Shown here: piece after piece, positions 38,291-47,329 of the stretch
How positions within the stretch are numbered: position 1 is the stretch's first letter
Layout: every line of letters begins with the position of its first letter
Origin: Pseudomonadota bacterium
GTDB taxonomy: Bacteria > Pseudomonadota > Gammaproteobacteria > Ga0077536
Direction of reading: 5' to 3'
Assembly: GCA_036130055.1 (NCBI GenBank)
Contig: JAYYOR010000013.1
Location: forward strand, 623-64,622
DNA length: 64,000 bases
The notes under the pieces: model-generated
Seen by the model: the letters and a program-made list of their open reading frames with translations, nothing else
Database searches by the model: none
What the model was told of the DNA's origin: nothing
Position numbers and translations under genes: made by a program

Positions 38291-38950
38291 CTAATTAATG
38301 AGTAAGGTCTTGAGTATTGAAGTGTGAAGTAATTCACAACTTTTCGACTGTGAATCTGATGGGATAGGAATTGGGATGACGAAAGCCAACAGTTGAGATT
38401 TTCCCTTTGTTGTTACTGAGTCGCGATTGAAAACTAATTTTTTAGATACACTCCACACCTCAGCTTCAACACGTGTCTCATCCTCTTGGGCCGTGTACCC
38501 AAAACACCCTCCGCCATATAACCCTAGGGAACAGGACATTGCACCAACCTTATCAGAGTAATCGGTTTTTTCGGATAACCATATTAAGTAGTCGACATCG
38601 GCTTGCTTTATTCGTTTTATAAATCTTTCATCGTTTAAGATAGTGATTGAGGGCTCGATGTTTTTGGTAGCTTCGTCAGCCTCGAAAAAAGGAAACATAT
38701 CATTTCGAAACATCATCTCATCAATCACAACTATATTGTTTCCGCTATTAAATTTTTTTGATAGACAATTTATTACGAAATTTGAATCATTATTAAAGAT
38801 TCCCATCGCCGTTTTTTTTAATAAAACTATCCTAATAGGATTGGAATCTATTTTCGGATTGGCAATAGCTTTTTCGTAATTGGGGTTGCCAGCACAACCT
38901 GTTATAAATATCACAACACTTAGAATAACGTATAATTTATTTTCTGCCAT
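38291..38950 (-). CDS. Uncharacterised lipoprotein
   Basis: Hydrophobic signal ending in lipobox ITG-C; internal SCSLGLYGGGCFG and C-terminal VIPIPIP motifs. Confidence 0.75.
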   Translation of the reverse strand: MAENKLYVILSVVIFITGCAGNPNYEKAIANPKIDSNPIRIVLLKKTAMGIFNNDSNFVINCLSKKFNSGNNIVVIDEMMFRNDMFPFFEADEATKNIEPSITILNDERFIKRIKQADVDYLIWLSEKTDYSDKVGAMSCSLGLYGGGCFGYTAQEDETRVEAEVWSVSKKLVFNRDSVTTKGKSQLLAFVIPIPIPSDSQSKSCELLHTSILKTLLIN

Positions 38951-39485
38951 AATAGCTTAATATACTTATTTCTAATTTTGAGGCAACTTTTCTAGTGCAA
39001 CTTGATATAAGCTTTGAAAGCACTGATCGTTGGTATCCAGAGGGCTTAGCTATTCTAGTGTAGACAGAAAAACTTGAATTTTTGATATCATCTAAATTTT
39101 GCATTAAAACCATATATTGAATTCGGCATTCATAATAGTTTAATCCAGTTTCTTCAGGTCTCGATATTTCGAATTTTATTAGTTTCGGTGTTAATGTTGT
39201 CTTAAACTGATTCGAGGGTTTTTCTAAATATACTTTAGAGAAAATTTTTTTTGTTACTTTTAAAATTATTTCTGTTTGTAATAAACCGATGGGGATCGTC
39301 AGAGGCGGATTATACGGGTGATTATATAATTGGTTTTTGAATTTTGTAGATAAATCTAGAAATATCCGTCGATCGATTTTATCAATTGGTTGGTGAGGTA
39401 ATGCTAGACTTATTGTAAGTGGTTCATTTTTACAGCTTATTGTTTGTATTAAAACCAGAATAACCAAAAATTTTTTTTTCTTCAT
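38937..39485 (-). CDS. Uncharacterised lipoprotein
   Basis: MKKKKFLVILVLIQTIS-C basic/hydrophobic signal with Cys. ATG at 39485 is preferred over the track start at 39533. Confidence 0.68.
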   Translation of the reverse strand: MKKKKFLVILVLIQTISCKNEPLTISLALPHQPIDKIDRRIFLDLSTKFKNQLYNHPYNPPLTIPIGLLQTEIILKVTKKIFSKVYLEKPSNQFKTTLTPKLIKFEISRPEETGLNYYECRIQYMVLMQNLDDIKNSSFSVYTRIAKPSGYQRSVLSKLISSCTRKVASKLEISILSYYGRK

Positions 39486-39495
39486 CAATTGTGAG

Positions 39496-40482
39496 TCAGC
39501 GAAACGAGTTAAGTCCAATGAAAGTACCACCATTTTGCTTACATAGTTTACGCATCAAAGAGGCGAATTTGATACCTGTGTGCTGAAAGTCCGTGGGCTG
39601 AGCTCTCATTACGGGAAAGCCTATCGCATGTATTCTCACAAGTGGTTCATTCACATTATTTTTACGATTAATCTTTGTAACATAGTCAACAACTTCTTTT
39701 ATCGACTTGCCAGTAAATTCGTCCCCGTAAACATATAGGCTTATTTTTCTGTTAGGCTTATAGAATGCCTCGATTGCTGTTGTTATCCCTTCTGCGGGAC
39801 TTGAATTAGAAAATACATTCCAGCCTTTTAATTTTTTTATAATTTGTCTTCTTATCTCTGGTGTATCTGAAATCCATTTATCTTGATACTCTGCGAACAT
39901 ATAAGATCCCATATCATTAAGAATTTGAACCCCTTTAACCTTGGGGTATACCATTAGGGTTTCTTCTAATTGTTTTATCACTTTAGGCCAGGCGTAGCGA
40001 AACATGCTCCCCGATGTGTCAATAATAAAAATGATATATTCGCTATCAATGGGAACCCCAGCTATGACGCTCTGATTACTAGCCTTTTTTCTTCTATATA
40101 GTCTCTGCATTTCGGCCGTAATCGTTTGTAAAGCAAGTTTTAATTTTGTTTCTTCTAATTGGCTAGTTTTTGCCTCTAAATACAATTGTTTATTTTGTAG
40201 TAGTTTTGTTTTTGTTTTCTCTAATTCGTTTTCAATTTGTCCTGCTTTTATAATGAGGTTTGAATTTCGTAACTGTTTATTTTCTAGCATTTCTTGGTAA
40301 ATGAACAACCGCTCTTGAAGATTAGAAATTTCATTTATTCTATTGTCATTTAAGTCTTCCTCAATAGATGACGGTATGCTCTTTGAAATAATTAATAATA
40401 AGATAATTGAACCAAAACCGCATGTAATAACGGACAAAAACGCCATACTGTTTGACCGATTCTCACTCCTTCGAAGCTTCAT
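39496..40482 (-). CDS. Single-pass membrane protein with coiled coil and vWA domain (paralog B)
   Basis: TM FLSVITCGFGSIILLLII, coiled coil, MIDAS FIIDTSGSM, YGDEF, IHAIGFP, ..NGGTFIGL. Confidence 0.88.
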   Translation of the reverse strand: MKLRRSENRSNSMAFLSVITCGFGSIILLLIISKSIPSSIEEDLNDNRINEISNLQERLFIYQEMLENKQLRNSNLIIKAGQIENELEKTKTKLLQNKQLYLEAKTSQLEETKLKLALQTITAEMQRLYRRKKASNQSVIAGVPIDSEYIIFIIDTSGSMFRYAWPKVIKQLEETLMVYPKVKGVQILNDMGSYMFAEYQDKWISDTPEIRRQIIKKLKGWNVFSNSSPAEGITTAIEAFYKPNRKISLYVYGDEFTGKSIKEVVDYVTKINRKNNVNEPLVRIHAIGFPVMRAQPTDFQHTGIKFASLMRKLCKQNGGTFIGLNSFR

Positions 40483-41552
40483 GGCCAGTCTCCTGATGGG
40501 CTAAGAAAGGATCCGTTTGTAACAGATGCAATTCCCCAGTACGCCCATGCTGCCAAGGGGTCGCCCTCCATTGGCAGAAGAATAACGTTTATAGGTATTT
40601 CTTTTGATAGAATCCCGGTGGCTTCTTCAAATAATTTTAAACGTGTTTTGCCATCTACATTAAGCCCACCGGTCTGCGTTCTGCCGAGGGTTGGCAAGCC
40701 ATCTGTGATTAGGAAAACGTTATCTGGTAATGGCTGAAGTGCATTTAAAGCCGTAAAAGCTTTATATAAATTCGTACCCCCCTCTGGCCGTAGTCTTTTA
40801 GTTTGTTGAATTGCTTCCTCTAGTTTTTCAGTGTCACTTGTACGTTGCCATGCTGGTTTTTTTCCTGAAAGTGATCGGCAATTTTCATTAAAAATTAAAA
40901 TTTGATATTTGCTCGCAAAAGGGAATCGAGCACTTATCCATTCAACAGTCGAAATAGCTTGCTGCCATTTTCGTGAGTTAACTCTTTTTCTTCCATCGAT
41001 GTTTCTTCTTCTTAAAATATTTACTATTTTTTTATCAAGCATACTAGCAGATATATCTAAAAGAATAAGTATGTTGTTTCCGCCAGATTTAATACCAGAT
41101 AGATATTCTCGGTTTCCTTGTCCAATAAACTTTAAGTTATCCTTGGCCTTATTTTTTTTCGTATTTTCGAGGGTTTGTTGCGCTTTTTCTGCTTTTTTTA
41201 TCTCGAATCTTAAAGTATCAAGCCCACGAATACGATTGTCGTCCCAATTTTTAATGAGTTGAACTCTTTCTGAAAGTTCAACTTTTTTTGTTGACAGGGA
41301 TTGTTGAGCTAACATTATTCTTTCCTTGAGGGCCTCGTTTTCTTTTTCGCGTGTTTCTATTTGTTTCAGAATATTAAGGTTTTGATTTTCAAGGCTTGCT
41401 ATTTCCTTATCCAAGTAGTCCTCTGGTAGTTCTGCCACAGCATCGAAATTATGCTTAATTATCAGAAAAAGTAAGATAAATGCTCCGAAACCGCATGACA
41501 TTATGTCTAGGAACGCGAGGCTTATTTCAGGAGATTGGGATTTATTTTTCAA
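40479..41552 (-). CDS. Single-pass membrane protein with coiled coil and vWA domain (paralog A)
   Basis: TM FLDIMSCGFGAFILLFLII, coiled coil, MIDAS LILLDISASM, GGTNL, LITDGLP, ..TNGSF; TTG start. Confidence 0.88.
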   Translation of the reverse strand: MKNKSQSPEISLAFLDIMSCGFGAFILLFLIIKHNFDAVAELPEDYLDKEIASLENQNLNILKQIETREKENEALKERIMLAQQSLSTKKVELSERVQLIKNWDDNRIRGLDTLRFEIKKAEKAQQTLENTKKNKAKDNLKFIGQGNREYLSGIKSGGNNILILLDISASMLDKKIVNILRRRNIDGRKRVNSRKWQQAISTVEWISARFPFASKYQILIFNENCRSLSGKKPAWQRTSDTEKLEEAIQQTKRLRPEGGTNLYKAFTALNALQPLPDNVFLITDGLPTLGRTQTGGLNVDGKTRLKLFEEATGILSKEIPINVILLPMEGDPLAAWAYWGIASVTNGSFLSPSGDWP

Positions 41553-41556
41553 GTTT

Positions 41557-42816
41557 TTAGTTCTCTATTTTTATGGCTTCGAAATAGGTTGAACTCGAAG
41601 GAAATTTAATTTTGTCGCCAATAAGAATCTCAACCTCTGAGTTTTTAAGAGTTTCATTTATAAAAACAAAATTACCGTGTGGATTAAGAACGGTTTTTTT
41701 ATCCTTTTTAGATATAGAAATTTTTGATCTTTTCTGAGCGAATTGCAAAGGGATCTCAGATATCCTAAATCCTTTATTATCTTTAAGAATGTGGGTGGGG
41801 GCTAAATCGTTAATTTGTTGCATTTCACTTTTTATCTCCTTATTTTTCTTTGGAAAATTTTCTTTTAAATTGACGATTAACCCTTCACGCGACTTAAAAA
41901 CCGTGGAACTGAAAAATTTTGCTATCCTGGGTTCAGGAAGTAAAGATACGTTACTGAAGCGAATGAAATCTTTTGTTAGGTGATAAGTCGTTGGACACAA
42001 GACAAGGTTGGTTCTAGAAGAACCAGCCCAAAATAGAACTTCCTCAAAAAATTTCTCGATAATTGATTGTACAAGAGAGGATTTTAATTCTGCACTATAA
42101 AGATTGCCATTTATTAGAGTGTTGATCTTACAAACATCTGTATCATTTGTAACTCTTATCCACCTTGGTATTTGAGTTCTTAAATAGTGTTCGCTTTCGC
42201 CATTAATCATCGGATCTGCTCTGCTCTGCCTTATGAATATTTTTCTGAATAATTGGGCGAGTTTATTATATAGCTGGATTAATCCGTGATTCTCTTTATA
42301 TTTTAGGGACTTTATTGAAAGAGCGTTGCTAGAGTCTAACTCAATATGAGTAATGTGATTCATTTGCAATCTTATTAAGTGAGTTTTATCATTAATATTT
42401 AAATCAGACAGGCTACATAAGTCGGTGTTAATTAAACCCTTCACTTTAATATTAAGTGATTCAAATATTCCACAAATTATTCCGAGTTGTTCTTCGGTAT
42501 ATTCACTTGGATACCCAATTAAAACAGGTTTATTATTTCCCAACTTTGACCACATTATCTGAAGCTGCTTGTAGACTAGATCAGAGTTTGCAGGTTGTGG
42601 AGTCGACGTAAATTCGGAATTCTTTTTTTCTATGTTGTGCCAATAATTACTATTGACAATAGTTGGCTTTTTGCTCAGATATGGCATTGCATCAATACCG
42701 GTTATGATTTTATTTTTAGCGATACATGAAATACCAGGAGATGACCCAACGATTTTCTTATAATCTTTTATTTGTAAATTAATGTCATTTAAATGAAAAA
42801 CATAAAAGACTTCCAT
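41557..42816 (-). CDS. Hypothetical cytoplasmic protein; possible degenerate actin/Hsp70 fold with FHA-like C-terminus
   Basis: 419-aa ORF tightly packed in the operon. [15 protein letters not shown]..KGLIN resembles Hsp70 [34 protein letters not shown] resembles the FHA end. Confidence 0.6.
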   Translation of the reverse strand: [419 protein letters not shown]

Positions 42817-42818
42817 CT

Positions 42819-43613
42819 TTAAGACTCAAGTTTTCTTATGAAATTATTTTCGCAATAAGCATGAGTATCGAGCACCAGCCTTTCTTGCATTAGTTGAAGT
42901 TGATGCATTAAGAACATCACTAAAAGGCTGATGATAAGCGCTACGAAGGTTGAATTAAAGGCAACGCCAAGGCTCATGGTGACTCCTAATATATCACCTT
43001 GGACTGCCTCATGTGCTTGACCGAGCGCAAGGCTGATTCCACGTACAGTCCCAATAAAACCTATTGAGGGTATAGCCCAAGTGATATAGCGAATCATCGA
43101 AAGTTCTGAATTTAATCGCTCTGCCTCGTTTTCACAACATTCATTAATCGCTTGAGATGCCTCTTGTATATTGCCAGTGGAAGAGTATCTTTGTAAGCTG
43201 CTTAATAGTGCTCTAGGAAGTAAATAATCTCGGGTTTCTTCAGGCGCAGATTGTATTATCCGTATATATTTGTTTGTGTCTTCTTTAATGATATTTGTCT
43301 CTTCCGGACTATCAATCAACTTGAACCTAAGTATGGATCTTTGGTTGTTCGTTTGTTTTGCTTTGAAACCAATTATGGCAATGGACCAAAACATCAGGAC
43401 AAAGCAGGTTTCTTGCTCAAAATCTTTTACCGTAATATAAAAGGAAGTTTCTTGAGGGATATATATTCCTTGTTCTTGATTTTTACGTTGGTTCATTAAA
43501 ATCTCTTCCGCTTCCGGCCTAACAATAGCCATATAAAATAAATGAACAACGATTATCGAAATTAACAAAGAGATTATTTGATAGTAAAATTCAGAGGTTG
43601 TTTTATCATTCAT
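42819..43613 (-). CDS. MotA/TolQ/ExbB proton channel family protein
   Basis: Four hydrophobic segments; RYITWAIPSIGFIGTVRGI and LGVAFNSTFVAL match TolQ/ExbB TM2 and TM3. Confidence 0.92.
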   Translation of the reverse strand: MNDKTTSEFYYQIISLLISIIVVHLFYMAIVRPEAEEILMNQRKNQEQGIYIPQETSFYITVKDFEQETCFVLMFWSIAIIGFKAKQTNNQRSILRFKLIDSPEETNIIKEDTNKYIRIIQSAPEETRDYLLPRALLSSLQRYSSTGNIQEASQAINECCENEAERLNSELSMIRYITWAIPSIGFIGTVRGISLALGQAHEAVQGDILGVTMSLGVAFNSTFVALIISLLVMFLMHQLQLMQERLVLDTHAYCENNFIRKLES

Positions 43614-43621
43614 GTTTTAGC

Positions 43622-43828
43622 CTATATATCTTTTGGCAGTGATACCGGCACGTCTTCTGATAATTCATCCAAAGATTTAAACGTGTTATCCGGAATTGGT
43701 TTTAATTTCTCCTCTGGCTTAGACACTGAGGATTTTATTTTATCTTCTGATTGTATTTCTAAAGCAGACGTAGGCATAAAAATCGTGTTTACAGTTAATG
43801 CTGAATATAATAAAAATTTACTGCGCAT
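43622..43828 (-). CDS. Small secreted hypothetical protein (68 aa)
   Basis: Signal-like N-terminus and acidic C-terminal FKSLDELSEDVPVSLPKDI; overlaps the upstream gene by 11 bp and ends 8 bp before the motA-like gene. Confidence 0.65.
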   Translation of the reverse strand: MRSKFLLYSALTVNTIFMPTSALEIQSEDKIKSSVSKPEEKLKPIPDNTFKSLDELSEDVPVSLPKDI

Positions 43829-45863
43829 ATCGAGCCACCCTAAAACCTAGATCATTTTTGCCTAAAATACCACTATTTCTATATGGAACTCCTAAAGAAG
43901 CCTTAGAACTGTTCATCCAACTTCCCCCTTTTATAACATGATTCTTTCCAGAAATCGGACCTAGATCGGACGAATAACTGTTTTCATCAAATTTTTCCGA
44001 ATAAAAATCATGGACCCACTCTGATACATTACCATATAAGTCGAATAGTTGGTTGGCATTGGGATTAAAGCTTTTTATTGGAGCTGACACCTCAAAACCA
44101 TCCGCGTATGCTGAATTTTTTCCAATTGCTTCACTATTTATTTCCTTATCTGAGAAATTAGCAAAGGCATTCGGAGGAGGGTAATTTTTTCCCCAGGCAA
44201 ATCGGGTTTGTTCTGTCTTGGCAACGGCTTCCCATTCTGCCTCGGTCGGAAGACGGTATCCGGTGGAGCTAGGTTTTACTCCTACAACATTTCCATATTT
44301 TATAATATAAAAGGGCTCAATTCCGTCTTGTCTGCTCAGCCAGTTACAGAATTTAACAGCATCTGACCAGCGCACATTTACGACTGGTTGATCATTGTCA
44401 TCTAAGGTATATTTATTGAAACTTCCTGATGAATGCATTGCTAAAAAATTTCTATATTCTAGGTTAGTAATTTCGCTTTCTGAAATATAAAAAGGCCGTT
44501 TTATAGATATTTTTCTTATTAATTCATTTTGTTGCCTATTTAAATCGTTTCTATTTGATCCCAATATTACTTCTTGCGGGTTAAATAAACGCATTTTATC
44601 TGTCATTAATTTCTTACTTTTCTTATTAATCATCTCTCCTTTTTCTTCAAGAGCTTCCTCTACTGTTTTTAACCTGATTTGAATTATTTTTTCAAAACCA
44701 GGCCTTGGAGTAATTTTTGTTTCGTATGTCGCATATCCAGCAGCTTGAATCGTAATTAAATGTGGCCTTGTTGGTAATTGAACTGATTGTGTGGCAGCTC
44801 CTACGTATTTTCGGTCAATAAAAAGTTGTGCATTTTTTGGTCTTGTTTCGAAGGTTAGTCGTGCCTTTTCTTCTTTAAGTTTAAATTCAAGCTTTTTCGT
44901 CTCGCCAGAGGGTACGCTAATCTTTTGTGTTACTGTTTTAAAACCCTCTTCTTTTAGCTGTAATGTATGCTGCTTATCTGGTGTTAGCGGAATGTCGATA
45001 GGAGAATTACCGATATATTTACCATTTATTAATATTTTAGCATTTATTGGCTGAGTGACTATTTTTGCCAAACCATCTTTTTTTTTCATTACGACATTTT
45101 TTAAAGTAATCGGTACACCCGCTTTAACTTGAATTTTTTTCGACCAAGTTTTGTAATCAGTTTTGTTTAATTTTATAATTCTGTCTCCTTGCATAATTTC
45201 AAATTTGAAAGGTGTGTTACCAACTGGTTCTGCATCGACACTTATTAGTGCATTTGATGGATTGGAGTCAATTTTAATGTCAGCCCATCCTGGTTCAAGT
45301 TTGACAAATAGTTTTTGAGACTGTCCCTTCCCAAAAACATCGACATCTAAAATTTTAGAGAGATATCTTTTAGCAGAAAATTCAATAGTGCGCCGTCCGG
45401 CTGGGACGTTTAGTATAAAATTCGTCGCCTTGCCATATTTTTCTCCGTCAATTGACACCTCTACTTCATTTACAGGTTCTAGAATTAACTCAATCTTTCC
45501 AGGAAGTTTTGTTAGGTTAAGGGTTTGTACTTGGTATTTATCTTCTGAAACTGTAACGTTATTTTCTAAATTATAGTATCCCTCCTCAGAGATCTTTACT
45601 CGATGCGGGCCAGGCAACAGTAAAAAATACTTACCAAGTTTCATAGAAAGTAACGATTCTACATGTATGTTTGGAGCAATGGTATTTGTTTTTATTTGAA
45701 CAAATCGGACGGACAAGAAAAACACTAGAATAGCGAGAAGGCTCACGCTTAAAAAAAGTAAGCGGTTTATTCTAAAATTTGAATTAGGGTTTGCAATATT
45801 GATATTTTGCTTCGTTGGTTTGAATTTAATCGGTTTGATAAATTCTAGTTCAATTTTTGACAT
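43818..45863 (-). CDS. Membrane-anchored PEGA-repeat protein with C-terminal FGE-sulfatase (SUMF1/GldK-like) domain
   Basis: N-terminal TM; about five PEGA-type repeats (SNPSNALISVD..VGNTP, G.H.V.I..EGY); ESEITN, QPVVNVRWSDA..FCNWLS, YRLPTEAEWE, LFDLYGNVSEWV, KGGSW, LGFRVAR. Confidence 0.92.
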   Translation of the reverse strand: MSKIELEFIKPIKFKPTKQNINIANPNSNFRINRLLFLSVSLLAILVFFLSVRFVQIKTNTIAPNIHVESLLSMKLGKYFLLLPGPHRVKISEEGYYNLENNVTVSEDKYQVQTLNLTKLPGKIELILEPVNEVEVSIDGEKYGKATNFILNVPAGRRTIEFSAKRYLSKILDVDVFGKGQSQKLFVKLEPGWADIKIDSNPSNALISVDAEPVGNTPFKFEIMQGDRIIKLNKTDYKTWSKKIQVKAGVPITLKNVVMKKKDGLAKIVTQPINAKILINGKYIGNSPIDIPLTPDKQHTLQLKEEGFKTVTQKISVPSGETKKLEFKLKEEKARLTFETRPKNAQLFIDRKYVGAATQSVQLPTRPHLITIQAAGYATYETKITPRPGFEKIIQIRLKTVEEALEEKGEMINKKSKKLMTDKMRLFNPQEVILGSNRNDLNRQQNELIRKISIKRPFYISESEITNLEYRNFLAMHSSGSFNKYTLDDNDQPVVNVRWSDAVKFCNWLSRQDGIEPFYIIKYGNVVGVKPSSTGYRLPTEAEWEAVAKTEQTRFAWGKNYPPPNAFANFSDKEINSEAIGKNSAYADGFEVSAPIKSFNPNANQLFDLYGNVSEWVHDFYSEKFDENSYSSDLGPISGKNHVIKGGSWMNSSKASLGVPYRNSGILGKNDLGFRVARYAQ

Positions 45864-45865
45864 TT

Positions 45866-47329
45866 TTAATTCGCGATTCCTTCTTTTTCTTCACAAATAA
45901 TATACACTCGATTATCTTTTGTTTCAGTTGCCACTATTAAACTTGCCACCACATCTTGGTAGCCTTTTCTCTTACCAGAAATACTATATTCCCCAGGGTC
46001 TAACCTGAATGCCCTGCTTTTGAAGGGCCCCAATACTATATTATTATCGAATTTAATGATTGTCTTGTTGTCTGAAATAAATATGAAGGGTATTTTTTTT
46101 TCCATATTATCTATAACTTCGTTCAAATTATTAAGCTTGACGGATATAGTTGGTTCATCTTTAAAGGTTTCAATTTTTTTCTTAAGCAGCTTAGCCATTT
46201 CTAAAGTTTTCTGTCTAATGGGATATTCTTCTTTCCTTAAAAACTCAGCTATTTGTTGATCAAGTTCTTTTCGATACTTTGAGTGTTTTAATCCCTCAAG
46301 TGCCTCTACAACATTTCTATCCAAAGATCTAACTTTTTCATAATTAATTATTGCATTTTGCCAATCATGGCTTTTCATCGCTTTTTTTGCGTTATTCATA
46401 TATTGATAAATTTTAAAGTTCGTTTCAGCTCGTATTGATTCAGATATGGCATTTTGAATTTCTCGTTTATTTGGGAAAATATTTCTTGCAATTTCAAACT
46501 GTTTTTTTGCTTGCCCAAATTGCTTGTTTTCGAGAAATGTCTGTCCCTGTTTAAATAACTTTGTATACTCCATGTTTTTTTCTTTATATTGTATTCTATT
46601 AATTGCATGTTGTGCCTCGGTCGCATTATTGTCTAAATTAATTATTTTTTGGTATGTTCTTAGGGCCGCTTTGTCCTGACCTAGTTCTTCAAACTCTTTT
46701 GCTTGTATTATTAGAGACTGGACTTTGTCAAAACTGTTAGTGCGGGCCATCCCCAGATTTGCCCTTTCATTCTTTGGATCAATCTGTAAAACGAATTTAA
46801 ATAGTGCGCTTGCTAAAATAGGATTGCCTTGGTTCAGAGCAAAAAACCCTTCTTGCAGTTTTCGCTCTAGGGTGCTCGGTATTTCTGAAACTATTTCTTT
46901 TGATTCTTTGGTAATCTTGCTTAATAATTTATTGGCCTCAGCGTAACGTTGGAGCCGATGCATAGATTGCGCTGTTTTAAGGAGGTTATTAAATTCTAAA
47001 TTTTTTTCCGGATCCCACTTTTCTAAATTCAGTTTTTTTATTTGACTAATTGCTTTTTTTGCTTCTTTTAGAAATTTTTGGGATTCCTCTCTTCGAGCCT
47101 TTACGACTTTTTCCTTTGTGCTATCCTTAGATTTATAAAGGGGATCCAAATTTGAAAGCGCACCTTCTTTTTCTTTTGTTATTTTGTCTTCAAAAAAATA
47201 AAAAATAAAAATAGAAAAAACTGTAATTAGAAGGGCCAGTACTGCTAGTGTTGGTGGTCGTCTGTTGTCTTTTTCCGAATTTAAAGTTTTAAAATGTTGA
47301 TGTAGTTTAGATTCTATTTTATTAGTCAC
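45866..47329 (-). CDS. Membrane-anchored TPR protein with C-terminal PEGA-like module
   Basis: TM near residues 27-46; TPR-like helices (FKFVLQIDPKNERANLG, YQKIINLDNNATEA, YEKVRSLDRN..A.EG); LDPGEYSISGKRKGYQDV; GTG start. Confidence 0.8.
   Translation of the reverse strand: MTNKIESKLHQHFKTLNSEKDNRRPPTLAVLALLITVFSIFIFYFFEDKITKEKEGALSNLDPLYKSKDSTKEKVVKARREESQKFLKEAKKAISQIKKLNLEKWDPEKNLEFNNLLKTAQSMHRLQRYAEANKLLSKITKESKEIVSEIPSTLERKLQEGFFALNQGNPILASALFKFVLQIDPKNERANLGMARTNSFDKVQSLIIQAKEFEELGQDKAALRTYQKIINLDNNATEAQHAINRIQYKEKNMEYTKLFKQGQTFLENKQFGQAKKQFEIARNIFPNKREIQNAISESIRAETNFKIYQYMNNAKKAMKSHDWQNAIINYEKVRSLDRNVVEALEGLKHSKYRKELDQQIAEFLRKEEYPIRQKTLEMAKLLKKKIETFKDEPTISVKLNNLNEVIDNMEKKIPFIFISDNKTIIKFDNNIVLGPFKSRAFRLDPGEYSISGKRKGYQDVVASLIVATETKDNRVYIICEEKEGIAN

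Follow-up and report, generated by a model that had tools for sequence, protein, structure and literature searches.

A TolQ-linked pair of vWA proteins in which one partner has lost its transmembrane aspartate in a single clade

In current rotation models of MotAB, ExbBD and TolQR, the two aspartates of the motor axle alternate in proton binding, and because the axles of these motors are homodimers, a single aspartate is hard to remove from them. A stretch of 64,000 nucleotides from a gammaproteobacterial genome of the lineage Ga0077536 (assembly GCA_036130055.1, contig JAYYOR010000013.1, positions 623 to 64,622 of the forward strand; hereafter the window) raises the question of what becomes of such an axle when one of the two aspartates is missing. 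Beside a TolQ/ExbB-like channel gene it encodes two adjacent vWA-domain proteins, which we call A and B, each with an N-terminal transmembrane (TM) helix whose pattern recalls that of ExbD and TolR; the helix of A carries the expected aspartate, while that of B carries a serine in its place. Is the serine genuine, is it a property of B as such, and could the two proteins still form the axle of an ion-driven motor? The design of a motor with a vWA pair at its centre is known, as a prediction (Mol Biol Evol 2025;42(6):msaf138, PMC12204202), so that the idea of such a pair inside a channel pentamer, which an earlier note on this DNA had put forward from the sequence, is not new; what is new is an Asp-less B that is confined to one clade.

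Two paralogs with a helix, a coiled coil and a vWA head

The earlier note described two paralogous proteins, each composed of a TM helix, a coiled coil and a vWA domain with a DxSxS motif, and set D16 of A against S17 of B (codon TCC), and the open reading frames (ORFs), BLASTP, hhalign and AlphaFold bear this description out in every detail. The N-terminus of A consists of MKNKSQSPE, the helix ISLAFLDIMSCGFGAFILLFLIIK, in which the aspartate is residue 16, and a following H; that of B consists of MKLRRSENRSN and the helix SMAFLSVITCGFGSIILLLIIS, in which the serine is residue 17. In both proteins the helix is oriented with its N-terminus inside and is followed by a long coiled coil and then by the vWA head with its DxSxS motif. 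The stop codon of A overlaps the start codon of B in an ATGA, which fits a 1:1 synthesis of the two proteins. BLASTP aligns A with B over the N-terminal 169 amino acids (E = 5e-7), and a profile-profile comparison with hhalign extends the alignment to 224 columns (99.2% probability, E = 2.6e-19), placing A-D16 on B-S17 and matching the two DxSxS motifs. By these alignments, A and B are paralogs.

The two heads differ in how readily they are recognized. The DxSxS motif of A (D166/S168/S170) is invariant among 28 sequences, as are T283 and D284, and that of B (D155/S157/S159) is invariant among 26. A matches the Pfam family VWA_2 (3.6e-9); B has no Pfam match, only 1 of 26 members of the B family reaches VWA_2, and a sequence search of the PDB with the B profile returned coiled-coil noise only (best E 0.086). 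The AlphaFold model of B (pLDDT 75.7) comprises the TM helix at residues 12-34, a single long helix at 47-118 and a vWA fold, for which Foldseek finds integrin I-domains, vWF-A3, ANTXR2 and BatB (E 2e-5 to 4e-4, TMt up to 0.68). A can thus be assigned to the vWA proteins by Pfam and B by its predicted fold, with metal binding at the metal ion-dependent adhesion site (MIDAS) being putative in both. The CGFG motif, which had been taken as a signature shared by the family, holds in A as C-G-[FL]-G but not in B, where it is C-[GCSA]-[FIV]-G.

The TM helix had been called ExbD/TolR-like, and this description stands for its pattern and register but not for its sequence homology. The local pattern …(S/A)FLD(I/V)(M/I)… resembles the …P(L/Y)IDV(M/V)… of the ExbD/TolR proteins of the same lineage, and when the N-terminal profile is compared by hhalign with 28 ExbD/TolR sequences the aspartates fall in register, in an alignment of six columns only (SFLDvm / PlIDVv; E 0.03, probability 1.7%). 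No significant sequence homology between the TM helix and ExbD/TolR was found in this comparison, and neither A nor B matches PF02472 (ExbD) at E ≤ 0.1. The resemblance lies in pattern, topology and genomic context, and does not amount to demonstrable homology.

Such N-terminal segments, which are hydrophobic and positively charged at their start, might instead be signal peptides that are cleaved off, or plain membrane anchors that have nothing to do with the channel and in which the Asp is incidental, and the statistically insignificant similarity to ExbD/TolR helices is in keeping with this. Cleavage was an objection that the earlier note had raised against itself, and helix length, charge, cleavage motif and conservation all speak against it. 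At the median, 23-24 residues in a row are uncharged, with a net charge of +2 to +3 on the N-terminal side of this stretch and of -1 to -2 over the 15 residues that follow, and only 37 of 96 A sequences and 6 of 106 B sequences have a small-x-small motif after the helix. Among 28 diverse orthologs of A, 13 positions of the helix are invariant (F14, L15, D16, M18, C20, G21, G23, L27, F29, L30, I31, K33 and H34) despite an overall identity of ~45%. The length of the stretch, its positive N-terminal side, the lack of a conserved small-x-small motif and a near-invariance that extends over hundreds of orthologs argue that the N-termini are not cleaved signal peptides. An incidental Asp would also have to be reconciled with its presence in 107 of the 108 readable representatives of B described below, and with the tight linkage of the family to a TolQ-like gene that lacks an ExbD partner; we find this explanation scarcely credible.

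The aspartate of B and its loss in one clade

Related loci were collected from one genome per species, with at least 600 pattern matches, and 80 of them were kept; among the matches listed, 544 of 600 encode a relative. Most of the genomes with such a locus belong to marine Gammaproteobacteria (Halieaceae, Porticoccaceae, Cellvibrionaceae, Alteromonadaceae, Microbulbifer and others), and they are joined by a few Desulfobacterota and one Vicinamibacteria metagenome-assembled genome (MAG). Cultured representatives with Asp in both partners include Microbulbifer, Congregibacter, Pseudoalteromonas denitrificans and Bowmanella. Among 60 relatives of the window's genome, B is found in 32 of the 36 genomes of its own family and in 2 of the 24 from other families of the class.

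In A the aspartate is present in 115 of 120 database matches, the other five of which start downstream of the site, and in all 72 loci of the 80 in which it can be read (seven are truncated, and in one the gene is absent at a contig end). The corresponding site of B is more varied: of 120 database matches, 87 have D there, 22 have S, 10 have A and one is a fragment, and across the 80 loci it is D in 75 plus 2 read by eye and S in 3; aligned as a column, it is D in 100% of 98 D-type loci and S or A in 9 members of one clade. We also searched 1.84 billion representatives (50% identity) with a profile of B and took the best 150, of which 107 carry D (104 by pattern and 3 by eye) and one carries S, while 42 are fragments or have no readable N-terminus. 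The Asp of B is thus found in 107 of 108 readable representatives, the lone S being the representative of the Asp-less clade. The concern that the Asp might not be conserved across homologs, which would have told against the earlier inference, is therefore answered for both proteins.

To place the exceptions, a FastTree phylogeny was built from 221 distinct B sequences after removal of the first 40 alignment columns, which hold the TM helix, so that the trait cannot shape the tree. All 40 sequences with S or A at the site (29 Ser, 11 Ala) form one clade with a support of 99, and the 11 Ala sequences are nested within it as one subclade, also with a support of 99, giving a minimum of two state changes. 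Judged from this tree and the alignments, B had Asp ancestrally and has it almost universally, and Ser and Ala are derived states restricted to the clade. Serine, of which the earlier note had asked whether it is lineage-specific or conserved in paralog B, is accordingly a feature of one clade, and B carries Asp elsewhere. The clade comprises the window's own genus (g1: S in G000, the window's genome, and in G002 and G004, A in G001) and a second genus (g4: S in three genomes), whose genomes measure 1.3-2.6 Mb, compared with 3-6 Mb in the rest of the family; in the other genera of the same family B keeps D.

The codons add a hint on how the serine arose. The Ser codon is AGC in the g4-type subclade (5 loci) and TCC or TCG in the g1-type subclade (3 loci), the Ala codon is GCC, and AGC and TCN lie two substitutions apart. 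Either a change from Asp to Ser took place twice, or Ser was left for some other residue and regained later, and both courses hint that Ser is favoured at this site and Ala tolerated. The codons do not distinguish between one and two independent losses of Asp, since four nucleotide changes are needed either way.

The serine codon itself is genuine. The earlier note had asked for a check of the reads at positions 40432-40434, and we compared the window with Logan contigs of three public marine runs (X1, X6 and X7) from three studies, one of which may be the window's own source. The contigs of all three runs show no difference at 40432-40434, and the sole difference across 40300-40600 is a C>T at 40542; a fourth run, X4, yielded no contigs that match the stretch, which is no evidence of absence. 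The TCC codon is upheld by these independent contigs, and the orthologs with Ser or Ala at the same site settle the matter independently; an assembly error was rejected on both grounds.

The same genome (G000) holds a second, shorter paralogous system on contig C34 (L122:1546-7788), with the order TPR / PEGA-FGE / TolQ-like / A2 / B2 and without the Hsp70-like gene or the lipoproteins of the window's operon. Its A2 and B2 both keep the TM Asp (SLSFLDIMACGLG and SLTFLDVISCGFG). In a search with B, matches of this second-system type were found in G002-G005 and G000 of genus g1 and also in G020 and G048, and none was found in the three genomes of genus g4. A strict correlation between the loss of Asp and the presence of a second system was therefore rejected, as matches of this type also occur in G020 and G048 and none was seen in genus g4.

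A proposed motor with one protonatable aspartate

The vWA pair was said to stand where an ExbD would be expected, and the operon agrees with this in having a TolQ/ExbB-like gene without ExbD or TolR. None of the 8 operon ORFs has an ExbD/TolR domain by Pfam, and the three ExbD/TolR (PF02472) genes of the genome lie on other contigs (C11, C17 and C32, not C13), where each adjoins a canonical ExbB/TolQ gene. The 'GFIGTVRGI' and 'FNSTFVA' motifs of the channel align with the GTVxG and the Thr-containing TM motifs of the genome's own TolQ/ExbB/MotA homologs. Both Thr residues are kept in 82 orthologs, within a channel that is highly conserved overall, and from this alignment we infer that they line the lumen as a ring.

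We propose, with a probability of roughly 0.6, that A and B together form the axle of an ion-driven, TolQ/ExbB-like motor of the 5:2 type, in which a heterologous vWA pair replaces the TolR/ExbD homodimer, and that in this clade the motor still functions, as an asymmetric 5:1:1 machine in which a single Asp can be protonated. Five TolQ-like subunits would surround two helices, one N-in trans-pore helix from each of A and B, and ion flow by way of A-D16 and the Thr ring would drive a relative rotation or a power stroke. A parallel coiled coil, about 60-70 residues long, would hold the two proteins together, and this stalk would project the paired vWA/MIDAS heads across the periplasm (about 70 residues, estimated from the helix of B at 47-118, would reach ~10 nm if continuous). 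The heads would reach toward the wall or the outer membrane and presumably pull or turn an envelope partner, candidates being the PEGA/FGE protein, the TPR protein and the lipoproteins of the operon, while the Hsp70-like protein would act from the cytoplasmic side. Both helices carry the presumed proton-binding Asp in almost every living member of the family, as they did in the ancestor. In this clade, the change of B's Asp to Ser (to Ala in the nested subclade) would have turned B into a permanently neutral partner, leaving only A to cycle protons, while strong constraint persisted on the Asp of A, on the channel's Thr ring and on all other parts of the motor.

The pairing of A with B was assessed by structure prediction. 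Full-length A and B, with family alignments, gave ipSAE values of 0.78, 0.80 and 0.78, compared with 0.00 for the best of three controls; in calibration, 116 of 157 solved complexes and 2 of 215 mismatched pairs scored this high, a guide that is rough here, as our own alignments were used. The runs of A with B share at least 68% of their contacts, with a partner pLDDT of at least 73. The two proteins meet along a coiled coil that is parallel and in register (A 47-104 with B 46-108) and at the C-terminal strands of their vWA domains (A 325-356 with B 283-326). Binding of A to B as a parallel heterodimer is thus supported by the model; that heterodimers form rather than homodimers is our presumption. 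For the asymmetric heterodimer that had been put forward earlier, the pairing (ipSAE ~0.78-0.80) and the restriction of the Asp to A at this locus thus find support, while the design as such was anticipated by a published prediction (PMC12204202).

Canonical 5:2 motors use homodimers, and homodimers of A and of B might likewise reside in separate TolQ-like pentamers, in which case the complexes with a homodimer of B would be Asp-free in the clade and would not act as motors; the structure prediction covered the pair A+B only. Separate homodimers sit poorly, however, with the arrangement of the genes, as A and B are both present, adjacent and co-oriented in every locus whose contig covers the region and overlap here in the ATGA, and with the model, in which an in-register coiled coil is joined by a specific vWA-vWA interface while the controls score 0.00. 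The published prediction treats the pair as dimeric partners (PMC12204202). Moreover, an Asp-free homodimer of B should lose the constraint on its TM helix, yet the helix of B in the clade stays FL[SA]VITC[GCS]FG. We regard separate homodimers as quite improbable.

If the heterodimer still works as a motor, constraint should be visible in its other parts. Within the clade, B sequences are 55-77% identical, and only 55-60% between the subclades, with the vWA core intact. A-D16 (in 5 A sequences) and the two Thr and the GTVRG of the channel (in 7 channel sequences) are unchanged. We then defined clade-specific positions as those that are at least 90% conserved in D-type loci and at which no clade member has the consensus residue. 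In B, this returned D17 alone; in A, it returned V25F, which lies in the helix (F in 5/5), and R5K/S; and in the channel, it returned I230L and G194S, the latter five residues after the Thr of GTV and 100% G in 73 others but S in 7/7. Of these, G194S and I230L of the channel and V25F of A are possible compensatory changes, as read from the alignments.

The same clade can be read as one in which the motor no longer turns and persists as a static or gated trans-envelope tether, a structural scaffold. The TM Asp is described as essential in MotB, ExbD and TolR (PMC12204202), the second system on C34, with both of its aspartates, could take over the motor role, and the small genomes of the clade (1.3-2.6 Mb as against 3-6 Mb) fit reductive evolution. 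Lost ion flow should, however, relax precisely those residues, A-D16, the channel Thr and GTVRG, that are unchanged in the clade. Genus g4 has Ser too, yet the search with B yielded no match of the second-system type (36-38% identity) in its three genomes, and the use of AGC in one subclade and TCC/TCG in the other suggests selection for Ser, not drift. We therefore consider a non-turning scaffold unlikely.

It should be noted that several points weigh against the motor proposed here. The TM helices lie outside the confident interface of the A+B model, and coiled coils pair readily in models of this kind, of which the present one was judged against controls other than A+A and B+B. With the similarity of the helix to ExbD/TolR not significant, the term trans-pore helix draws on pattern, context and the published AlphaFold 3 (AF3) model. 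The family of vWA-pair motors exists as an in-silico prediction alone, and as the Asp is held to be essential in MotB, ExbD and TolR (PMC12204202), a partner without it could by analogy belong to a crippled or repurposed motor. Compensation at the three positions is not demonstrable, because the loss of Asp is one event (or two closely linked ones) in a single lineage and allows no statistics. Finally, in one locus of the Asp-less clade (L121, from the same MAG as L011) the genes of A and of the Hsp70-like protein are frameshifted (L121:3100-5400), which may be sequencing or long-read assembly error, or else gene decay.

The operon, its known relatives and what the locus means

A and B belong to a co-directional operon whose order is TPR, PEGA/FGE-sulfatase, a 68-aa ORF, TolQ/ExbB-like channel, Hsp70-like, A, B and two probable lipoproteins (Table 1).

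Table 1. The operon around A and B and the two helices, in positions of the window
Feature	Position	Strand	Description and basis
TPR protein	45866..47329	-	487 aa, N-terminal TM segment, first gene of the operon; Pfam TPR_2/TPR_14/TPR_19
PEGA/FGE-sulfatase protein	43818..45863	-	681 aa, membrane-anchored, five PEGA repeats and C-terminal FGE-sulfatase domain; PEGA 7.7e-48 (5 stretches), FGE-sulfatase 4e-38
Small ORF	43622..43828	-	68 aa, between the PEGA/FGE and TolQ-like genes; ORF list
TolQ/ExbB/MotA-like channel	42819..43613	-	264 aa, presumed pentameric stator; Pfam MotA_ExbB (PF01618) 1.5e-13, above cut-off
Hsp70-like protein	41557..42816	-	419 aa, cytoplasmic, like the Hsp70 nucleotide-binding domain, with C-terminal beta domain (residues ~340-419); AlphaFold and Foldseek
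Paralog A	40479..41552	-	357 aa, TTG start; TM helix with Asp, coiled coil, vWA domain
A, trans-pore-type helix	41454..41525	-	residues 10-33 (ISLAFLDIMSCGFGAFILLFLIIK); D16 codon GAC at 41505-41507
Paralog B	39496..40482	-	328 aa; TM helix with Ser replacing Asp, coiled coil, divergent vWA domain
B, trans-pore-type helix	40384..40449	-	residues 12-33 (SMAFLSVITCGFGSIILLLIIS); S17 codon TCC at 40432-40434
Probable lipoprotein, first	38937..39533	-	ORF listed with 198 aa, internal Met then KKKKFLVILVLIQTISC the likelier start; lipobox-like TISC read from the sequence
Probable lipoprotein, second	38291..38950	-	219 aa, ...VIFITGCAGN; ORF list

Across the 80 loci, contigs of sufficient length show the order TPR / PEGA-FGE / TolQ-like / Hsp70-like / A / B (/ lipoproteins) again, except that in a few loci the TolQ-like gene follows B. 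The TPR gene lies upstream of the PEGA/FGE gene wherever the contig extends that far, the position of the PEGA/FGE gene is conserved, and the Hsp70-like gene stands between the TolQ-like gene and A in most loci. For the 68-aa ORF, phmmer gives weak matches between the same two genes in members of the Asp-less clade (L118-L121, L009) and in a small number of further loci. The first lipoprotein has weak orthologs directly after B in relatives, and about half of the 80 loci have an ortholog of the second downstream of B.

The 419-aa protein has no Pfam or NCBIfam match, and its likeness to Hsp70 comes from its AlphaFold model (pLDDT 86), for which the top matches of Foldseek in the PDB are Ssz1, BiP and DnaK (E 1e-13 to 4e-16). 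On reading the consensus of its family, the usual phosphate-loop motifs of Hsp70 are not evident. The protein may be a non-catalytic pseudo-Hsp70. A search of the 8 operon proteins with PADLOC gave no match to a Zor (ZorA/ZorB) model at E ≤ 0.1 and a lone, chance-level match of A to LmuB (E 0.016), and a defence system such as Zorya was rejected for want of a meaningful match. In two RNA runs, no more than 5-9% of the words sampled were present.

The closest known relatives are the TM-tethered vWA proteins of the second family of vWA force transducers in PMC12204202 (the TPH-vWA / TolQ-like motor family), which occur mostly as heterologous pairs and are tightly linked to tolQ homologs without tolR or exbD. 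This family, exemplified there by Idiomarina, is an in-silico prediction, and the AF3 model of the paper places both helices in the pentamer in a 5:1:1 arrangement, with the Asp pair at the Thr ring. The operon described here shares with it the TM-tethered vWA proteins next to a tolQ-like gene, the absence of tolR, exbD and motB, the heterologous pair and the Thr ring. The helix of each monomer carries an Asp there, whereas here B has Ser, and Ala in close relatives. In the light of that account, the window's pair is a member of the family by descent and departs from it in the Asp of B alone. The words PEGA, sulfatase, Hsp70 and serine do not occur in the main text of PMC12204202, and the one mention of vWA in the text of its supplement is the legend of Fig. 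S1.7; that paper thus appears to describe neither the accessory genes nor the Asp-less clade. In the first vWA family of the same paper, which is TolA/TonB-like, the TM helix bears an SHLS motif with His and binds the pentamer from outside, and tolR-like genes are present. By inspection of their sequences, neither the A nor the B helix has an SHLS-type pattern, and the operon has no tolR-like gene.

With ExbB-ExbD, TolQ-TolR and MotA-MotB the operon shares a channel of the MotA_ExbB family in which the two TM Thr align, and an N-in single TM helix with an Asp near the cytoplasmic side in the register …L-D-[IV]-[MV]…. It differs from them in having no ExbD (PF02472) domain, a coiled coil and a vWA domain taking the place of the ExbD or OmpA-like domain, and in having a heterologous pair, one partner of which is without Asp, where these motors have a homodimer. 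The gliding motor of Myxococcus xanthus offers another comparison, as AglR5:AglQ:AglS is predicted (Commun Biol 2025, PMC11761067) to be a TolQ-like pentamer that holds two different TolR-like subunits, within a larger envelope-spanning machine that includes TPR proteins and, elsewhere in it, the vWA adhesin CglB. AglQ and AglS are, however, TolR-like and not vWA fusions, and the vWA protein of that machine is an outer-membrane lipoprotein, not an axle.

The PEGA/FGE protein invites a looser parallel to a motor-plus-ring machine. Its best NCBIfam match is GldK/PorK, the ring lipoprotein of the type IX secretion system (T9SS), in which the ion-driven 5:2-type motor GldLM works with an envelope protein of the FGE-sulfatase fold. 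The score of 106 bits is far below the cut-off of 350, there are no GldL or GldM homologs here, and this is a resemblance only.

Plungers without Asp are also found in canonical clusters. In the relatives G005, G004, G002 and G007 (L136, L154, L155 and L156), ExbB-ExbD1-ExbD2-TonB-like clusters occur in which ExbD1 has the TM Asp ('…LTPLIDCVF…') and ExbD2 has Asn ('…VIPMINIIF…'). As at our locus, two plungers stand beside one channel gene and the second lacks Asp; unlike A and B, they are true PF02472 proteins, and the replacement is Asn rather than Ser or Ala. A pair of this type was not found in the window's own genome, and a titles-level listing of the literature on Asp-less partners of the ExbD/TolR type or on single-Asp stators yielded nothing relevant. 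By analogy with these clusters, asymmetric axles with a single Asp may be more general. We tentatively extend this further, to a reading that we hold with considerable doubt, in which nature has shown by experiment, in this clade, that one protonatable Asp and one 'piston' per turn are enough for a 5:2-type ion motor to run, G194S, I230L and V25F re-tune the pore, the Asn-bearing ExbD2 follows the same principle, and single-Asp stators are general and have been overlooked.

Based on our findings, we suggest that a heterologous pair that lacks exactly one Asp, and that has been kept under selection through deep divergence, provides a direct test of whether one Asp suffices and of what the second adds. 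The pattern of conservation would mark paralog A as the indispensable ion-binding subunit of a predicted envelope machine, and it supplies three candidate compensatory positions (194 and 230 of the channel and 25 of A). If the reading we favour is true, the clade is a natural test of whether 5:2 motors need both of their aspartates, in which a two-piston engine has possibly become a one-piston engine.

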